DNA of 64,000 nucleotides, from the NCBI GenBank assembly GCA_049522015.1, contig JBEKOG010000001.1, positions 142,659 to 206,658 of the forward strand, written 5' to 3'. Below, in pieces: positions 50,833-59,543 of this stretch (the first letter of the stretch is position 1; the number at the start of each line of letters is the position of its first letter). Below the pieces are notes generated by a model, which had not been told where the DNA came from, did no database searches, and saw only the letters and a program-made list of their open reading frames with translations. Origin of the DNA: Verrucomicrobiota bacterium. GTDB taxonomy: Bacteria; Verrucomicrobiota; Verrucomicrobiia; Limisphaerales; UBA11358. Position numbers and translations under genes: made by a program.

Positions 50833-52122
50833 ATGAGCAAAATTGTTGATATCCAGGCGCGCGAAATCCTCGATTCGCGCGGTAACCCCACGGTGGAAGC
50901 TGATGTGACGTTATGCTGCGGCGCGTTCGGGCGCGCGTCAGTGCCCAGCGGCGCGAGCACCGGCGAACACGAAGCCATCGAACTCCGCGACGGCGACAAA
51001 AAACGTTTCGGCGGCAAGGGCGTGCAGAAGGCCGTCAAGAATGTCACCGACGTCATCGCGCCCAAACTCATCGGTCTTGACCCATTCGATCAACTGACCG
51101 TGGACGCCACGATGCTCAAGCTCGACGGCACGGAAACGAAGTCGAAGCTCGGCGCGAACGCCATTCTCGCCGTTTCGCTGGCCAATGCCAAGGCCGCCGC
51201 CGCCGGGCTGAACCAGCCATTGTTCCGTTACCTCGGCGGGCCGAACGCGAAAGTCCTGCCCGTGCCGATGGCCAACGTCATCAACGGCGGTGCGCACTCG
51301 GATGCCCCGATTGATTTTCAGGAATTCATGATCATGCCGCTCGGCCTGCCGACGTTCAGCGAGGGGCTGCGCGCGATTGTCGAAACGTTTCACGCGCTGA
51401 AATCCGTTTTGAAAAAGAAGGGTTGCAGCACCGCCGTCGGCGACGAAGGCGGGTTCGCGCCCAAACTGGGCAGCGTGGAAGAGGCGCTGGAAACCATCAT
51501 TCAAGCCGTCAAGGATGCCGGCTACAAGCCGGGCAAGGACATTTATCTCACACTCGATCCGGCCGCGTCTGAATTTTACAGCGGCAATGCCAAATACACC
51601 TTCAAGAAAAGTACCGGCGAGACCGTCAGCGGTGACGACCTCGTGAGTTTTTACGCGAAACTCGTGGCGAAGTATCCGATTGTTTCCATCGAAGACGGCT
51701 GCGGCGAAAGTGATTGGGCGACGTGGAAAAAGCTCACCGACAAACTCGGCGACAAAGTGCAACTCGTCGGTGACGACAATTTCGTCACCAACCCCAAATT
51801 CCTGCGTAAAGGCATCGAAATGGGCGTGGCCAACTCGATTCTGGTGAAGGTGAACCAGATTGGTTCGCTCACCGAAACTTTGGATTGCGTTGAACTGGCC
51901 AAAACCCACGCCTACACCGCCGTCATCAGCCATCGCTCCGGCGAGACCGAGGACGCGACCATCGCGGACATCGCCGTGGCGACGAACTGCGGCCAGATCA
52001 AGACCGGCAGCTTGAGCCGCACGGATCGTCTGGCGAAATACAACCAACTGTTGCGCATCGAGCAATTGCTGGGCAGGAACGCGGTTTACGCCGGCACCAG
52101 CGCGCTGCCGAAGGGGCGGTAA
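50833..52122 (+). CDS. eno: Enolase (canonical copy)
   Basis: 429 aa with [75 protein letters not shown] and [12 protein letters not shown]. Confidence 0.96.
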
Positions 52123-52159
52123 GCTTGTGTTCGCCCGTGGCGAGAGTTAGATTCCGACC

Positions 52160-52597
52160 ATGGAACTCAAAGAACAATCAAAGCCTTACATGGGCGAAGT
52201 CAGAATCAAAGTGAAGTTGAGCAACGTAGCCGACCAGGCAGCGGTGGCTGCGGGACAGCTTTTGCCCGATCAGGTCAGAAATGTCGAAGCCGATGCGATG
52301 GTGAACACTGGCGCGGTACGTTCATGTATTCCGGCCCCGCTGCTGGAGCGGTTGGGGATAAAACCTTATGACCAGGTGACGGTCGAACTTGCGGATGGCC
52401 GTAAGAACGAGGTGGGCATTGCTGATGGTGTGCGCTTCGAGATCATGCACCGCCGTTCCAGCGATGATGCTTTGATCCTGGGTGATGAAGTGTTGATCGG
52501 CCAGACGTTGCTGGAGAAAATGGATTTGCTGATGGACTGCACCCGCCGACGTTTGGTGCCTGCTCATCCTGAAGGCGCGGTCAACAAGCTCAAGTAG
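52160..52597 (+). CDS. Retropepsin-like (clan AA) aspartic protease homolog with Asn in place of the catalytic Asp
   Basis: The [12 protein letters not shown]...[15 protein letters not shown]...LGIKP...VELADG...LLG pattern matches small bacterial clan AA proteases, but the D(T/S)GA motif reads NTGA. The likely start is the ATG at 52190. Confidence 0.65.
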
Positions 52598-52714
52598 CAT
52601 CGCCGTGGCGACGAACTGCGGTCAGATCAAGACCGGCAGCTTGAGTCGCACGAATCGTCTGGCAAAATATAACCAGCTCCTGCGCATCGAACAATTGCTT
52701 GGCAAGAACGCGGT
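52598..52714 (+). pseudogene. Relic copy of the enolase 3' end (corresponds to 51969-52085)
   Basis: 117 nt aligned by eye with 11 mismatches, 9 of them synonymous in the eno frame. It starts immediately after the protease gene stop and is truncated by the palindromic repeat at 52717. Confidence 0.85.
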
Positions 52715-52716
52715 CT

Positions 52717-52783
52717 GGCCTTCGTTTGTTTCGCGCGCGTGATCCACTTACAAAACTTTGTCCCACGTGGGACAAAGTTTTGT
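52717..52783. repeat. Palindrome-containing repeat, inverted copy of 30097-30163
   Basis: ggccttcgtttgtttcgcgcgcgtgatccacttacaaaactttgtcccacgtgggacaaagttttgt. Confidence 0.9.
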
Positions 52784-52916
52784 CATGCAATTAATATCTG
52801 TCAGCCTTTCAGGCTTTCAATTTGTGTGAATTCGTGAAATTCGTGTCAACCTTGGGCGGTCGGCCGATCGCCGATTGAGAAGATGGCCGCCGTCTGCCGA
52901 CGGCAACGACGGATTC

Positions 52917-52951
52917 AAAACCGTAAGCCAGCTGCCTGACTTCCGGTTTTT
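52917..52951. terminator. Long hairpin flanked by an A-run and a T-run (possible bidirectional terminator, 45 nt beyond the response-regulator stop)
   Basis: In aaaaccgtaagccagctgcctgacttccggttttt, the outer stem is aaaaccg/cggtttt and the inner stem aagccag/ctgactt (with G-U pairs). Confidence 0.45.
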
Positions 52952-58700: not shown

Positions 58701-58900
58701 GCGACGTGGTTGGGCGGCGCGGAGCCATTTTTGATGATCTGGTCGTAGGCTTTGATTGCCGAATCAAGGTTCCCCTCGACTTCTTCGGCGTAGAGACCTT
58801 GTTGCAACAGTTCGCCGGTGGTGGCGCCGGAGGCGATGTTGCCGGTTGTGGCCAAAGCTGCGAGCAGCAGGCCCAGCATGATGATTTTGAGTGTTTTCAT
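55733..58900 (-). CDS. Secreted 1055-aa protein: N-terminal TPR, central region, CBM9-like module and C-terminal LamG/concanavalin-like lectin domain
   Basis: Signal peptide MKTLKIIMLGLLLAALA, TPR-like AIKAYDQII...ALYREGMCYLKL, CBM9-like IIDGKVDDLWN...YKAMWDENNLYLLVDVTDD...DSVEVYIDA, and LamG-like GGAVDLDG...VSCWV...LIDDVRVYNYALSESEI. Confidence 0.8.
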   Translation of the reverse strand: MKTLKIIMLGLLLAALATTGNIASGATTGELLQQGLYAEEVEGNLDSAIKAYDQIIKNGSAPPNHVAQALYREGMCYLKLKDEASARAALEKLVADYPGQTEIVEKARPILDELTDFDPATLMPAGTLAYVEFGSPGRQVETILTLLKGTPFENPLAAVAGRQATNSNQKSPGDIVAALLNPSMMAEFKKIRSAAIGITGIAQNNPPTVSVLYPGKSDALRGLILAALGMAGTPGQPIEGMQTVTIKSAGAVAYDDKVIIYAQPASQLQWCVKQYKGLTSEPTLASSNKSFAKLGKAQRQKNAVTVWVHADEAYARLLQMFPAGQVPSGILSANAIADFNNIDELILVESVETNGLGWQAEIAFKDGHHSLAYNLIRTPNINPAALAAVPAEAVALASFSLNQTDPAQADKVRAQIQNVTGLDVGREIFANVEQVTLFAMPAGGNATSSATNMFGPDRLGLAITSRNPEQTRQVLTTLLGVMSAGQQNTNAGQYKIGKGGQGNLYCYVEQVNGTTLLSLNRDVVNASVTAIKNHKSVCVSGPLNNAVNALAPTASKLVLVNAGGAIRLLGPQMKVGTLNEEQAGQLNTSLDQLARAADATTIELRTDEQPNDFAVSAGITGIPPLNQVLGPATQITRIANEARTEAAARRLRQESPATILPAASMPIIDGKVDDLWNAAKPYKIANVIYGPPPSSNDLSADYKAMWDENNLYLLVDVTDDILKHDTSPEDWYDSDSVEVYIDATDSKSAEYGQTDYQYGFIWDKTSPQMLESKHNRTNGVQYALVTTDKGYRVEIKFPWSTLGTKPSAGARIGLDVQVNDNDAGGKRKAKIAWHATEDNAWENPQAFGNAELAGLVGWWKFDETQGKTAKDSSGGNHTGTLVGHAKWGQGKIGGAVDLDGHDSFVRIADKSAFDFAGAVSVSCWVQIRTVPVGWMAIVTKGDNSWRLSTSNQEEKFHFSVNDWDRAAINGATTVNPGEWHYVAGVYDGSAMSLYVDGKLDATHPWTEGIGRNNFDLLIGENAEKKGRCFDGLIDDVRVYNYALSESEIKTLAAGQ

Positions 58901-58933
58901 GGATTGTGTTGTGGTTATGGTAAACAGTTTTTT

Positions 58934-59155
58934 TTAGACAAAGCGATGCTCGGGTGTTCCGCGGTTGGTGGCGGGGAAATATCCGCTGGTGCAAATGCGG
59001 CCTGCTTCCCAGGCGGACAGCTCCTCCGTGCGCAGACGGCGCAGGAGTGCGCGGTTGGCGGCCGTCACCGGCAAACGCAAAGACGGCGCGGGACTGGTGT
59101 TGGAACGCAAAATTCTCGAAACGTCTGCTTCGGTGATTTCAATTTCGACTTTCAT
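58934..59155 (-). CDS. Small hypothetical protein (about 73 aa if started at MKVEIEI)
   Basis: Only an ORF on the same strand upstream of the 1055-aa gene. No recognisable motif. Confidence 0.3.
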   Translation of the reverse strand: MKVEIEITEADVSRILRSNTSPAPSLRLPVTAANRALLRRLRTEELSAWEAGRICTSGYFPATNRGTPEHRFV

Positions 59156-59323
59156 AAATTGATTTCTTTTGGAAAACAAATTGACAAATGTTTTGCTCAT
59201 TGGCGTTTACAGTAAGGAATCAATGTTACCGTTTTGCTACCGCCTCGTCCTTTTATAAACAAAAAATTTTGCCGGCCATGGACGGATATTGTTCCGGCGC
59301 CCGCAAGAATCGCTTGAGCAACG

Positions 59324-59430
59324 TCGGTGGCCGGTGCGACGAATTGCGGCCAGCCAGGTTTTCGGCATCGAGCAACGGCCTGGCAAAAAACGCCGTTTAC
59401 GCCGACACCGGCGCGCTGCCGAAGGGGCGG
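59324..59430 (+). pseudogene. Second, more decayed relic of the enolase 3' end (internal deletion)
   Basis: ggtgcgacgaattgcggccag matches eno 51976-51996. ggcatcgagcaa...gtttacgccgacaccggcgcgctgccgaaggggcgg matches eno 52052-52119. The downstream ggcggtcggcagaccgccg...ggccgccgtctgccgccggcagctacggattcaaa is homologous to 52855-52920. Confidence 0.75.
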
Positions 59431-59513
59431 CCAGTTGTCGTAACGGCGGTCGGCAGACCGCCGCAGATAAAAAGACGGCCGCCGTCTGCCGCCGGCAGCT
59501 ACGGATTCAAATC

Positions 59514-59543
59514 GGAAGTCAGACAACTGACTTTCTATTTTTT
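59514..59543 (+). terminator. Rho-independent terminator-like hairpin, probably the ancestral eno terminator
   Basis: Stem aagtcag (59516-59522) pairs with ctgactt (59527-59533), loop acaa, followed by tctatttttt. No intact plus-strand gene lies upstream, only the eno relic. Confidence 0.55.

Follow-up and report, generated by a model that had tools for sequence, protein, structure and literature searches.

Minimal mobile elements of Neisseria and similar cassette sites lie between conserved genes and are exchanged by transformation, and homology-facilitated illegitimate recombination (HFIR) is known in Acinetobacter, S. pneumoniae and P. stutzeri. HFIR has also been described in E. coli conjugation (PMC3240628), and transformation-generated merodiploids are described by Johnston et al. 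(2013, PMC3784515). For restriction-modification complexes, insertion with long target duplication has been described (Nobusato et al. 2000, as cited in Furuta, Abe & Kobayashi 2010, NAR 38:2428, PMC2853133). The published criteria are a cargo of <20 kb, no mobility gene and direct repeats of >30 bp, with repeats of 46-420 bp having been found; in a related genome the empty site has a single-copy sequence with which the repeats align, and they often overlap the 3' end of a gene; invasion, amplification through the repeats and release have been proposed as a cycle for these complexes (PMC2853133). The eno locus analyzed here, located in a 64,000-nucleotide stretch of a Verrucomicrobiota genome (the window), is laid out as these criteria describe and comprises the following features.

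50833-52122, + strand: intact 429-aa enolase gene (eno); Pfam Enolase_N and Enolase_C, E=5e-123
51969-52122, + strand: intact eno 3' end, left copy of the long target duplication and reference for repeat families D1-D5
52123-52159, + strand: cassette spacer, 37 nt, 93-95% identical to loci L155/L158
52160-52597, + strand: retropepsin-like (clan AA) gene, 145 aa, inner cassette cargo, assigned by profile and predicted fold
52598-52714, + strand: relic 1, displaced eno 3' end (codons IAVATN...GKNA) without the last 37 nt
52715-52852, no strand assigned: secondary insertion that consists of dispersed repeats, namely a palindrome-bearing 69-nt unit and a second repeat unit
52853-52950, + strand: D1 and terminator T1, eno's native downstream module displaced with relic 1, homologous to 59445-59542
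52996-53685, - strand: OmpR-type response regulator, outer cargo; Pfam Response_reg and Trans_reg_C, 98% aa identity in genome G031
53699-55711, - strand: histidine kinase, outer cargo; Pfam HisKA and HATPase_c, 88% aa identity in G031
55733-58900, - strand: 1055-aa TPR/CBM9/LamG protein, outer cargo; Pfam CBM9_1, Laminin_G_3 and TPR, 81% aa identity in G031
58934-59200, - strand: 88-aa ORF, outer cargo, no Pfam or NCBIfam match
59324-59430, + strand: relic 2, the older of the displaced 3' ends of eno, internally deleted, partial matches to the eno tail
59431-59543, + strand: D2 and terminator T2, original eno downstream module, homologous to D1/T1 and to the empty site of G016
59659-61950, + strand: 763-aa gene without family, a neighbor downstream of eno common to this genome and two relatives

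The original prediction that the 3' end of eno occurs three times was borne out, with all its features re-found in place: the last 154 nt of eno exist as the intact end, a 117-nt copy and a decayed copy. Relic 1 aligns without gaps to 51969-52085 (91% over 117 nt, E=1.3e-40 in a whole-genome search), its first base directly follows the TAG of the ORF at 52160-52597, and its 11 nucleotide differences amount to nine synonymous codons and two replacements (D->N, R->K). Relic 2, which matches 52069-52119 at 86% and 51973-51996 at 88%, has the predicted internal deletion, keeps ...gtttacgccgacaccggcgcgctgccgaaggggcgg and starts within about 10 nt of relic 1's start position in eno. Both relics are followed by eno's native downstream and terminator module, and the homology 3' of both that had been noted is real: 52855-52951 and 59445-59542 are 77% identical over 99 nt (90% between 52880-52919 and 59472-59511), and the sequence right after the eno stop in G016 is 79% identical to D1/T1 over 76 nt and 79% identical to D2/T2 over 85 nt. 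D1/T1 is also homologous to the sequence 3' of the full-length relic in locus L175. Hairpins were found at 52917-52950 (T1, fold of -12.5 kcal/mol) and, as predicted, after relic 2 at 59509-59543 (T2, -11.9 kcal/mol, z = -3.9, followed by a U run). G030 and G017 have homologs of the 763-aa gene (66-72% aa identity), located 2-4.5 kb past the eno gene. The second insert had been placed from 52715 onward and this boundary was not upheld, as 52715-52852 consists of repeats, 52853-52950 is duplicated target and the cargo starts at about 52951. The repeat insertion (fold of -22.3 kcal/mol) contains a 34-nt perfect palindrome (52750-52783) with 18 identical copies in the genome and an occurrence at 30097-30130 of the window, and a 71-nt unit that has a 94% identical, inversely oriented copy at ~30095-30165. 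This secondary insertion cost relic 1 its end and D1 its start.

Between 52913 and 59427 the sequence runs collinear with G031 (86%), and collinearity ends exactly at the end of relic 2. The regulator/kinase/lectin block and relic 2 with its identical deletion are common to this genome, G031 and G141; the outer insertion is the older one and the protease cassette the younger, inner one. Two successive insertions, as originally proposed, are retained, while their proposed order is reversed. Among 151 family genomes, homologs of the 88-aa ORF occur only in G031, G141 and G133.

The protein encoded by the inner cassette scores below the cut-offs of PF13975 (26.8 bits) and TIGR03698 (49.8 bits), but its AlphaFold model (pLDDT 88) matches retroviral proteases, APRc and Ddi1 with a Foldseek probability of 1.0. 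The predicted fold would be that of a plain retropepsin, and no nuclease or DNA-binding feature was seen in the predicted structure or by Foldseek. In the window's copy the catalytic Asp is replaced by Asn (VNTGA), whereas most close homologs have VDTGA. The gene is probably read on one transcript with eno that ends at T1. In relatives, a hairpin of the spacer (CAUGGCCGG...CCGGCCAUG) takes in the protease start codon; it folds with -18.8 kcal/mol (z=-5.3) in L171, compared with -8.6 kcal/mol for the degenerate form in this genome. In the inverted repeat, 81% of cells are paired versus 31-44% in slid controls, with weak covariation.

Empty sites occur in four related genomes: directly after the eno stop, G011, G016 and G030 have the D/terminator module, and G001 has just the terminator. 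The first slot behind eno is polymorphic, being empty or occupied by the protease gene or by a gene for a YfhO-like protein of 800 aa (G017, G034, G031). The sequences between the eno copies are unrelated cargo and not tandem copies; local tandem duplication with identical intervening sequence, which would have spoken against the original prediction, was not seen. Serial insertion is supported by these comparisons, in that the three eno ends would result from two gene blocks inserted one after the other behind eno, each displacing the older tail downstream. No tyrosine recombinase was found on the contig of >297 kb, extending the earlier remark that no integrase is visible, and Pfam searches detected no mobility domain in the inserts; 28 tyrosine recombinase genes are present elsewhere in the genome. 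A short conserved core was not found either, and the proposed likeness to integrase elements that carry a surrogate end into tRNA or tmRNA genes is not supported.

In the tree set, eno is immediately followed by the protease gene at 25 of the 66 loci that could be scored, with a gap of 37-41 nt at the loci read in detail and with varying outer flanks. The insertion is not confined to this genome: the junction of relic 1, TAG|CATCGCCGTGG, is identical in L155, L156, L158-160, L175 and L191. A second junction type is located ~40 nt upstream in L170, L179 and L206, and in L172, L174 and L193 the 10-25 nt of relic next to the junction have decayed or been lost. Full relics measure 139-153 nt and extend to an in-frame stop; D and the terminator come after the relic of L175. 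Comparing relics with the adjacent intact ends in eight lineages, 86 synonymous and 26 non-synonymous codon differences were counted, whereas random hits would be about 30% synonymous, and the relics are free of frameshifts in seven of the eight. Together with the 9:2 ratio in relic 1, this signature agrees with the earlier suggestion that relic 1 derives from a functional, diverged eno allele. Relics are often nearer to the functional allele of another lineage: that of L175 is 94% identical to the intact end of L171 and 90% identical to its own. In L206, tandem amplification has produced an R-C-R-C-R' array whose two units are 100% identical, as expected for crossing-over between repeats.

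A search of ~40 other species of the genus did not find the cassette, although the eno alleles it sits behind diverge at the level of that genus; the eno of this genome has 80-95% aa identity to that of same-genus genomes. The cassette is younger than the host eno genes: among this genome, L155 and L158, dS is 0.09-0.23 for the protease gene and 0.42-0.60 for the adjacent eno, synonymous divergence of the former being 2.5-4.5 times lower. Frequent allelic replacement of eno could account for part of this gap. DNA similarity between this genome and L158 ends about 330 nt upstream of the eno start, within the end of the preceding gene. From lineage to lineage, the intact eno 3' end diverges in step with the remainder of eno (r=0.79) but not with the protease gene (partial coefficient -0.02), and this lack of co-divergence gives no support to a surrogate end that travels with the cassette. 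Linkage to eno is clustered on the tree (4 changes versus 20 in shuffles), which fits homology-bound spread with rare target switches.

In the wider protease family, flanking duplications were detected at 14 of 69 loci (20%) compared with 9 of 360 shifted control positions (2.5%, p=6e-7). These duplications, of 24-264 nt, vary in length and target between loci, and the host genes differ, including DUF885, alpha-2-macroglobulin and kinase-TPR genes. In this genome, 18 loci (this one and 17 others) consist of a gene 3' end, cargo and an orphan copy, whereas the mirror classes contain 2-3. By our reading of the translations, most cargo at such loci is toxin-antitoxin-like, and some resembles glutathione peroxidase and deoC. 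The relics have retained a stop in frame, in many cases with another stop codon.

We consider it probable that two successive insertions with long target duplication occurred at the eno 3' end and that the cassette spread by homologous recombination. The ancestral state would have been eno, a short downstream module D and a terminator, still seen in G011, G016 and G030. The 6.4-kb block of regulator, kinase, TPR-CBM9-LamG and small-ORF genes would have entered first, bracketed by two copies of eno tail, D and terminator, of which relic 2 would be the outer one. A 475-bp cassette made up of the 37-nt spacer and a promoter-less retropepsin-like gene would have arrived later, turning the prior tail into relic 1, and a REP/MITE-like repeat would last have trimmed the end of that relic. 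The cassette would be an old lineage resident behind eno that, we infer, persists and moves between diverged genomes through ordinary homologous recombination of the RecA type, with eno as the left homology arm and relic and D as the right one. In each transfer, or exchange with a cassette-free allele, a functional eno allele would give rise to a new relic; unequal crossing-over between copies would amplify the unit, excision would also be expected, and no element-encoded recombinase would take part. Such recombination accounts for spread at one target but not for the first duplication at a new target, and new targets are common in the family. The data showed neither recombination intermediates or circles nor a single population in which occupied and empty sites coexist. 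Both the origin of that first duplication and the entry route of the DNA we infer; an HFIR or merodiploid route could, by analogy, lie behind the former, and ComEC and DprA are encoded in the genome, although both are near-universal and do not demonstrate competence. The near-identical relic starts, and cassette ends that in many cases coincide with stop codons, hint at some preference for a site or structure, which plain recombination would not lead one to expect.

Chimeric joining or binning of the eno alleles of co-occurring strains might be suspected in a metagenome-type assembly of 122 contigs whose copies differ like alleles of different strains, yet many independent assemblies from different studies have the parts in the same order, relic 2 recurs in two other genomes, and the relics end at defined junctions beside unique cargo, so that an artefact is extremely improbable. 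Another explanation is a local origin without mobility, in which a one-off illegitimate event or tandem duplication was followed by vertical descent, with intact eno or relic and D kept fresh through overwriting by cassette-free alleles in homologous recombination. An intact end that diverges with eno and not with the cassette, the single origin implied by one junction in several lineages, and the deleted relic 2 common to three genomes, as descent predicts, favor this reading. This explanation is nevertheless unlikely, because the dS of the protease gene lies so far below that of eno for the same pairs while the outer flanks cannot be aligned, the cassette was not detected in the ~40 other same-genus species searched, and many different host genes have this layout across the family.

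We judge equally doubtful that a recombinase supplied in trans moves non-autonomous CIME- or integron-cassette-like units that recognize an eno core site around CATCGCCGTGGCGAC and carry a surrogate eno tail. The closely spaced relic starts, the protease junction identical in several assemblies, the conserved inverted repeat in the spacer and the 28 tyrosine recombinase genes elsewhere in the genome would suit such a system, but neither the contig nor any cassette encodes a recombinase, the repeats are long and variable in length and target, the degenerate or lost junction ends and the second junction type are unlike a conserved att core, and inspection by eye revealed no common motif at the junctions of different targets. 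Somewhat less likely again is that the cargo itself, a retropepsin-like protein here and toxin-antitoxin or restriction-modification modules elsewhere, promotes its own capture or retention, either through post-segregational killing or through DNA breaks that it provokes and whose repair brings duplication. It would explain the roughly 10-fold enrichment of flanking duplications around the protease family and the addiction-type modules read at most other such loci of this genome; in one lineage, moreover, a Phd/YefM antitoxin gene precedes the protease gene by 10 nt, in the position that a toxin gene would have, and the Kobayashi group has put forward a hypothesis of this kind for restriction-modification systems. 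However, cargo that is not selfish (the two-component/lectin block, the YfhO-like gene, the apparent glutathione peroxidase and deoC) has the same layout, the protein, with its predicted plain retropepsin fold, shows no nuclease or DNA-binding feature, and the window's copy was retained despite its lost catalytic Asp.

Under serial insertion with spread by homologous recombination, the locus would be a clear and well-replicated case of a known but little-studied recombinase-free uptake of small gene cassettes. The cassette protein shares with small clan AA proteases (TIGR03698 'DTGF'; APRc of Rickettsia conorii, PDB 5c9f; the RVP domain of Ddi1) a single retropepsin domain of ~110 residues, the D-T-G-A motif in most family members and a matching predicted fold, but it falls below curated cut-offs, has a 35-residue N-terminal strand-helix extension and, in the window, carries N for the catalytic D. 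As in integrase-borne islands at tRNA, tmRNA and protein-gene 3' ends, with their tandem arrays and CIMEs, the old 3' end lies downstream of the insert and relics form serial arrays at one gene that remains intact; in contrast to these islands, the eno locus has neither an integrase nor a short identical att core, and its duplications vary in length and also take in the intergenic terminator module. With HFIR it has in common that one homologous anchor, here eno, would admit foreign DNA without a recombinase and, as with merodiploids, that duplications can arise when a repeat-bearing fragment pairs in an alternative way, whereas those are laboratory events and usually involve deletions. As with minimal mobile elements, related genomes carry differing or no cargo at one site and homologous recombination in conserved flanks would spread it, but here both homology arms come from the same gene (eno and its relic), so that the cassette would be portable whatever lies downstream. 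Repeat-mediated amplification, seen here in L206, is shared with the restriction-modification systems that insert with long target duplication. Compared with those systems, the cargo here is a retropepsin-like gene and a two-component/lectin block, with toxin-antitoxin-like modules elsewhere; the repeats, rather than being near-identical, differ by 9-16% and show the signature of functional alleles; a single cassette lineage is bound to eno over deep divergence; and the host is a Verrucomicrobiota lineage.

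The last 154 nt of eno are present two more times in the window, and the features of the region, from the intact gene to the second terminator, are as follows.

Features at and behind the 3' end of eno (window coordinates)
50833–52122, + strand: eno, with the repeated end at 51969–52122
52123–52597: inner insert (protease cassette), a 37-nt spacer and a 145-aa gene (52160–52597)
52598–52714: relic 1, a gap-free 117-nt copy of the eno end, 91% identity, E=1.3e-40 in a whole-genome search
52853–52916: D1, module after relic 1, homologous to D2
52917–52950: T1, terminator hairpin closing D1, -12.5 kcal/mol
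about 52951–59323, − strand: outer insert, with genes for an OmpR-type regulator, a histidine kinase and a 1055-aa TPR/CBM9/LamG protein, and an 88-aa ORF
59324–59430: relic 2, further decayed than relic 1, with an internal deletion, extending to the last eno codon
59431–59508: D2, module after relic 2
59509–59543: T2, terminator hairpin closing D2, -11.9 kcal/mol

Relic 1 begins directly after the TAG of the 145-aa ORF, and its 11 differences from the intact end comprise nine synonymous codons and the two replacements D->N and R->K; most of the 11 are C/T and G/A transitions that fall on third codon positions. It is cut off at 52714 by an insertion of dispersed repeats 138 nt long. The insertion carries a 34-nt perfect palindrome, ACAAAACTTTGTCCCACGTGGGACAAAGTTTTGT, which has 18 copies at 100% identity in the genome (window 52750–52783 and 30097–30130, and 16 others) and sits in a unit of about 69 nt that recurs inverted at approximately 30095–30165; the unit is REP/REPIN-like, and one copy truncated relic 1. 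The description of the triplicated end in the original prediction was right on every checked point. Its first insert, the protease cassette after eno, stands, whereas the second had been placed from about 52715 onward, where the dispersed repeats lie, and its start has to be moved to about 52951. The inserts measure 0.5 kb (inner) and 6.4 kb (outer).

The comparison with relatives covered the eno regions of 19 congeneric genomes, 20 loci in total; all genomes compared are metagenome assemblies. Empty sites, a search for which had been proposed, were found: the D/terminator module directly follows the eno stop codon in three relatives (G011, G016, and G030), that of G016 being 79% identical to D1 and D2, and in a fourth (G001, locus L065) the terminator alone follows it. 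In three other genomes (G017, locus L056; G034, L057; G031, L064) the slot directly behind eno holds a gene for an 800-aa membrane protein with a C-terminal YfhO-like match. A self-BLAST search for relics downstream of eno in 20 relatives was positive in G031 alone, where the YfhO-like cargo is followed by a 40-nt relic (relic 1') matching the eno allele of G031 itself and then by the whole RR/HK/lectin/small-ORF block, which is collinear with window 52913–59427 at 86%; collinearity ends exactly where relic 2 ends. In G141, relic 2 is present with the identical internal deletion. In G030 and G017, homologs of the 763-aa gene that follows T2 are located 2–4.5 kb behind eno. The empty sites, the alternative cargo, and the common outer block therefore indicate the order eno-D, outer block, then inner cargo, and the two successive insertions originally proposed are supported by the same observations. 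From an ancestral state of eno followed by D and the terminator, the outer block would have entered first, duplicating eno tail, D, and terminator in an event common to the window's genome (G000), G031, and G141; afterwards, the slot next to eno would have taken different cargo in different lineages, and the protease cassette would be the latest layer in G000.

The 145-aa protein is retropepsin-like (clan AA) and scores just under both family cut-offs (PF13975, 26.8 bits versus 28.2; TIGR03698, 49.8 bits versus 57.35). Its structural model (pLDDT 88.3) has the retropepsin fold, with Foldseek probability 1.0 to retroviral proteases, APRc of Rickettsia (5c9f), and the RVP domain of Ddi1. The catalytic D-T/S-G triad is altered in the window, where positions 52304–52318 code for V-N-T-G-A with Asn replacing Asp; the Asp is kept (VDTGA) in 15 of the 16 close homologs retrieved and at most loci, and one close homolog (protein P0044) has His in its place. 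Judged by these residues, the G000 copy has probably lost catalysis, though the family is a protease family. PADLOC gave no match for the protease, and a literature search on retropepsin-like mobile cassettes returned nothing relevant.

No terminator was detected from the intact eno end through the spacer and protease gene until T1, so that co-transcription of the protease gene with eno is likely. In the spacer, an inverted repeat, CAUGGCCGG...CCGGCCAUG, pairs the protease start codon (window 52123–52162, locus L171:580–622, and 16 other lineages). In relatives it forms a strong 9–10-bp hairpin holding the protease AUG (-18.8 kcal/mol, z=-5.3); the hairpin is degenerate in G000 and at loci L155 and L158. 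Pairing is kept in 81% of cells versus 31–44% in slid controls, RNAalifold gave no consensus for the spacer, and covariation, assessed by manual pair counting, was weak; therefore, a coupling of protease translation to eno termination is only a lead.

Close homologs of the protease in public assemblies (81–99% amino acid identity) all lie 37 nt behind eno, with differing outer flanks. The junction at which the protease TAG is followed directly by CATCGCCGTGGCGAC is identical in L155/L156 and L158–L160, where the relics are shortened in differing ways, to 33 nt or by internal deletion, and L162–L164 have no relic. A metagenome scan yielded 80 further loci which, with six others, form a tree set with 66 scorable loci, 25 of them linked to eno. 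Several loci contain full relics of 139–153 nt that start 1–26 nt after the protease stop and run to the in-frame stop; at one of them (L175) the full relic is followed by D and the terminator, which is the G000 state before repeat insertion. A second junction type, about 40 nt further upstream in eno, occurs at L170, L179, and L206. A search of about 40 further species in the genus did not find the cassette. Mapped on the protein tree, linkage to eno requires four changes, compared with 20 in shuffles; the cassette stays with its target and seldom switches. Metagenome contig L206 (positions 1–1500) carries a tandem of eno tail, spacer, and protease (R-C-R-C-R', with R the eno-tail copy and C the cassette) in which the two units match at 100% identity; behind them come a relic derived from another allele and then the native terminator. 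This tandem is the product expected from crossing-over between copies. Two further arrangements of retropepsin-like genes were seen. On L217, two retropepsin-like genes (212–667 and 833–1288) lie in tandem, the second bracketed by a 121-nt repeat of 92% identity. On the metagenome contigs L209 (1399–1749) and L212, a retropepsin-like gene of the family follows 10 nt after the end of a Phd/YefM-type antitoxin gene, an arrangement in which a toxin gene would be the usual partner.

Over eight lineages, relics and adjacent intact ends differ at 86 synonymous versus 26 non-synonymous codons, whereas random hits should give a synonymous share of about 30%, and seven of the eight relics are free of frameshifts. 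The relics are 84–91% identical to their own neighbouring end and often nearer to the functional end of another lineage, as in L175, whose relic is 94% identical to the end in L171 and 90% to its own. By these codon patterns, the relics appear to be displaced functional alleles, and the claim that relic 1 came from a functional, diverged eno allele is thereby supported. Full, truncated, deleted, and absent relics were all seen, which argues against selection for a function of the relics themselves. The protease proteins of relic-bearing lineages diverge down to 57–64% identity to the window's copy, and therefore the relics are not all passive remains of a single ancient event and must be renewed. 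Gene conversion from the adjacent intact end was rejected as sole refresher in view of the same identities to own and foreign alleles. Among G000, L155, and L158, dS is 0.09–0.23 for the protease gene versus 0.42–0.60 for the adjacent eno, and DNA similarity between G000 and L158 stops about 330 nt upstream of the eno start, within the end of the preceding gene. In a distance regression, divergence of the intact end tracks that of the remaining eno sequence (r=0.79) and does not follow that of the protease (partial coefficient -0.02); a surrogate end travelling with the cassette is accordingly not claimed. Phylogenetic resolution is limited by the shortness of the repeats.

The same layout was found at other genes. 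For a second protease subfamily, 80 loci from species-representative genomes were collected, 69 of them with enough flank, and a direct repeat brackets the gene at 14 of these 69; at shifted control positions within those loci the rate was 9 of 360 (Fisher p=6e-7). The upstream repeat copy belongs to the preceding gene, of which it forms the 3' end; examples of that gene are DUF885 and alpha-2-macroglobulin in the subfamily and a kinase-TPR gene in metagenome loci. In the clearest subfamily cases, both copies end at the stop codon of the preceding gene and the downstream copy begins 0–150 nt after the protease stop. At seven loci, including eno in the window, the differences are biased to synonymous ones (39:30 versus 20 expected). 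Self-comparison of G000 gave 93 local two-copy repeats, of which 18 had the arrangement of a long gene's 3' end, 0.45–2.4 kb of cargo, and an orphan copy, against 2–3 for mirror classes. Seventeen of these loci are additional to eno (e.g., C15:14462–15251, C13:59769–60511, C27:24834–25735, C40:21578–22530, C59:25603–26545, and C81:10108–10876). By reading of translations, their cargo is mostly toxin-antitoxin-like (HepT/MntA, PIN, HigB/HigA-like, and RelE-like), others being glutathione peroxidase-like or deoC-like, among further types. An in-frame stop is preserved in the orphan copies, though the stop codon used is often another one.

As to how such arrangements arise, a Pfam search of all long ORFs at 48245–61950 revealed no mobility domain in or beside the inserts, and no tyrosine recombinase (PF00589) was found on the contig of more than 297 kb (C1); the original remark that no integrase is visible thus holds, and an integrase acting in cis from this contig was discarded. 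A diversity-generating retroelement with template and variable repeats was likewise rejected, as the searched ORFs contain no RT domain and the repeat differences are not A-specific (not A-to-N). Translation of the relic as an extension of the protease was rejected too, since its eno frame lies at +1 to the protease stop and junctions range from 0 to 18 nt in length. Some 10 kb upstream of eno the window holds another enolase paralog (39596–40984, − strand; 59% amino acid identity to eno), which is also found in G019, G022, G026, and G033, most genomes of the genus being without it. This paralog was dismissed as the relic source, being just 75% identical over 74 nt, besides its low identity at the protein level.

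It seems rather probable that a cassette bracketed by a gene tail and its relic spreads by ordinary homologous recombination to any genome with that gene. Eno would serve as the left recombination arm and the relic plus D as the right one, and relic sequence beyond the cross-over would be replaced by the recipient's functional sequence. Such recombination explains the fresh relics, the degenerate junction-proximal 10–25 nt of the relic seen in L172, L174, and L193, the amplification, a cassette younger than its host eno, and the phylogenetic fidelity to eno. The ComEC and DprA homologs present in G000 are near-universal and hence uninformative on competence. Homologous recombination leaves unexplained how a new target is duplicated for the first time; candidates for this step would be homology-facilitated illegitimate recombination or the alternative pairing that makes merodiploids in transformation (PMC3784515). 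Nor does it account for the start points of relics 1 and 2 lying within about 10 nt of each other in eno, or for the coincidence of many cassette ends with stop codons, and on these grounds a site-specific or structure-guided step in insertion is alive as a rival to a purely homologous route.

The common view is that most accessory genes travel on elements that encode a recombinase of their own. The eno locus documents, in nature and with unusually good replication, a recombinase-free alternative in which the tail of an essential, highly conserved gene is duplicated around cargo; the record comprises the same cassette behind eno despite unalignable flanks, the functional-allele signature in the relics, and amplification on one contig. 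A broader, doubtful proposal is that the small retropepsin-like genes of Verrucomicrobiota, like toxin-antitoxin or restriction-modification modules, are cargo of recombinase-free 'hitch-hiker' cassettes tied to a host-gene 3'-end relic as a portable homology arm, homing to the same gene, amplifying and excising by crossing-over, and occasionally jumping between genes, with the protein having an addiction or selfish function. If that were true, the roughly 10-fold enrichment around the protease family and the Phd/YefM partner in one lineage would mean that the protein acts in such a way as to favour its own retention. As a practical use, orphan gene-tail fragments beside small genes can flag genes gained recently in metagenome-assembled genomes, in which island finders that rely on integrases detect nothing.

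Among known systems, the likeness to tRNA/tmRNA-type integrase islands with a surrogate 3' end, which had been suggested, was not borne out: such islands carry a recombinase gene inside the element and a short att core at both junctions, whereas the eno inserts contain no recombinase and show two junction types about 40 nt apart with no discernible left junction, the relic being degenerate next to the junction in L172, L174, and L193. A retroelement-type resemblance fails at eno in the same way, with neither a nearby RT nor adenine-specific differences. As in the HFIR or minimal mobile element type, conserved bounds enclose alternative or no cargo (empty, protease, YfhO-like, or the RR/HK/lectin block). 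The layout itself agrees with insertion with long target duplication, a pattern reported from H. pylori, H. influenzae, Neisseria, and others for their restriction-modification systems, together with a proposed cycle of invasion, amplification through repeats, and release (Furuta et al., 2010, PMC2853133). Empty sites exist at eno (G011, G016, G030, and G001), the direct repeats exceed 30 bp and have a single counterpart at the empty site (117–154 nt for the protease cassette; about 210–260 nt of tail, D, and terminator for the outer block), and the inserts are below 20 kb and lack mobility genes. This recombinase-free kind of insertion is already known but little studied. Its earlier record concerns a few competent pathogens and their restriction-modification systems, to which the present loci add a protease-like family and many toxin-antitoxin-like modules in Verrucomicrobiota. 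With a retropepsin-like gene and a two-component/lectin block in place of restriction-modification genes, eno differs from the described cases in cargo class, not in layout.
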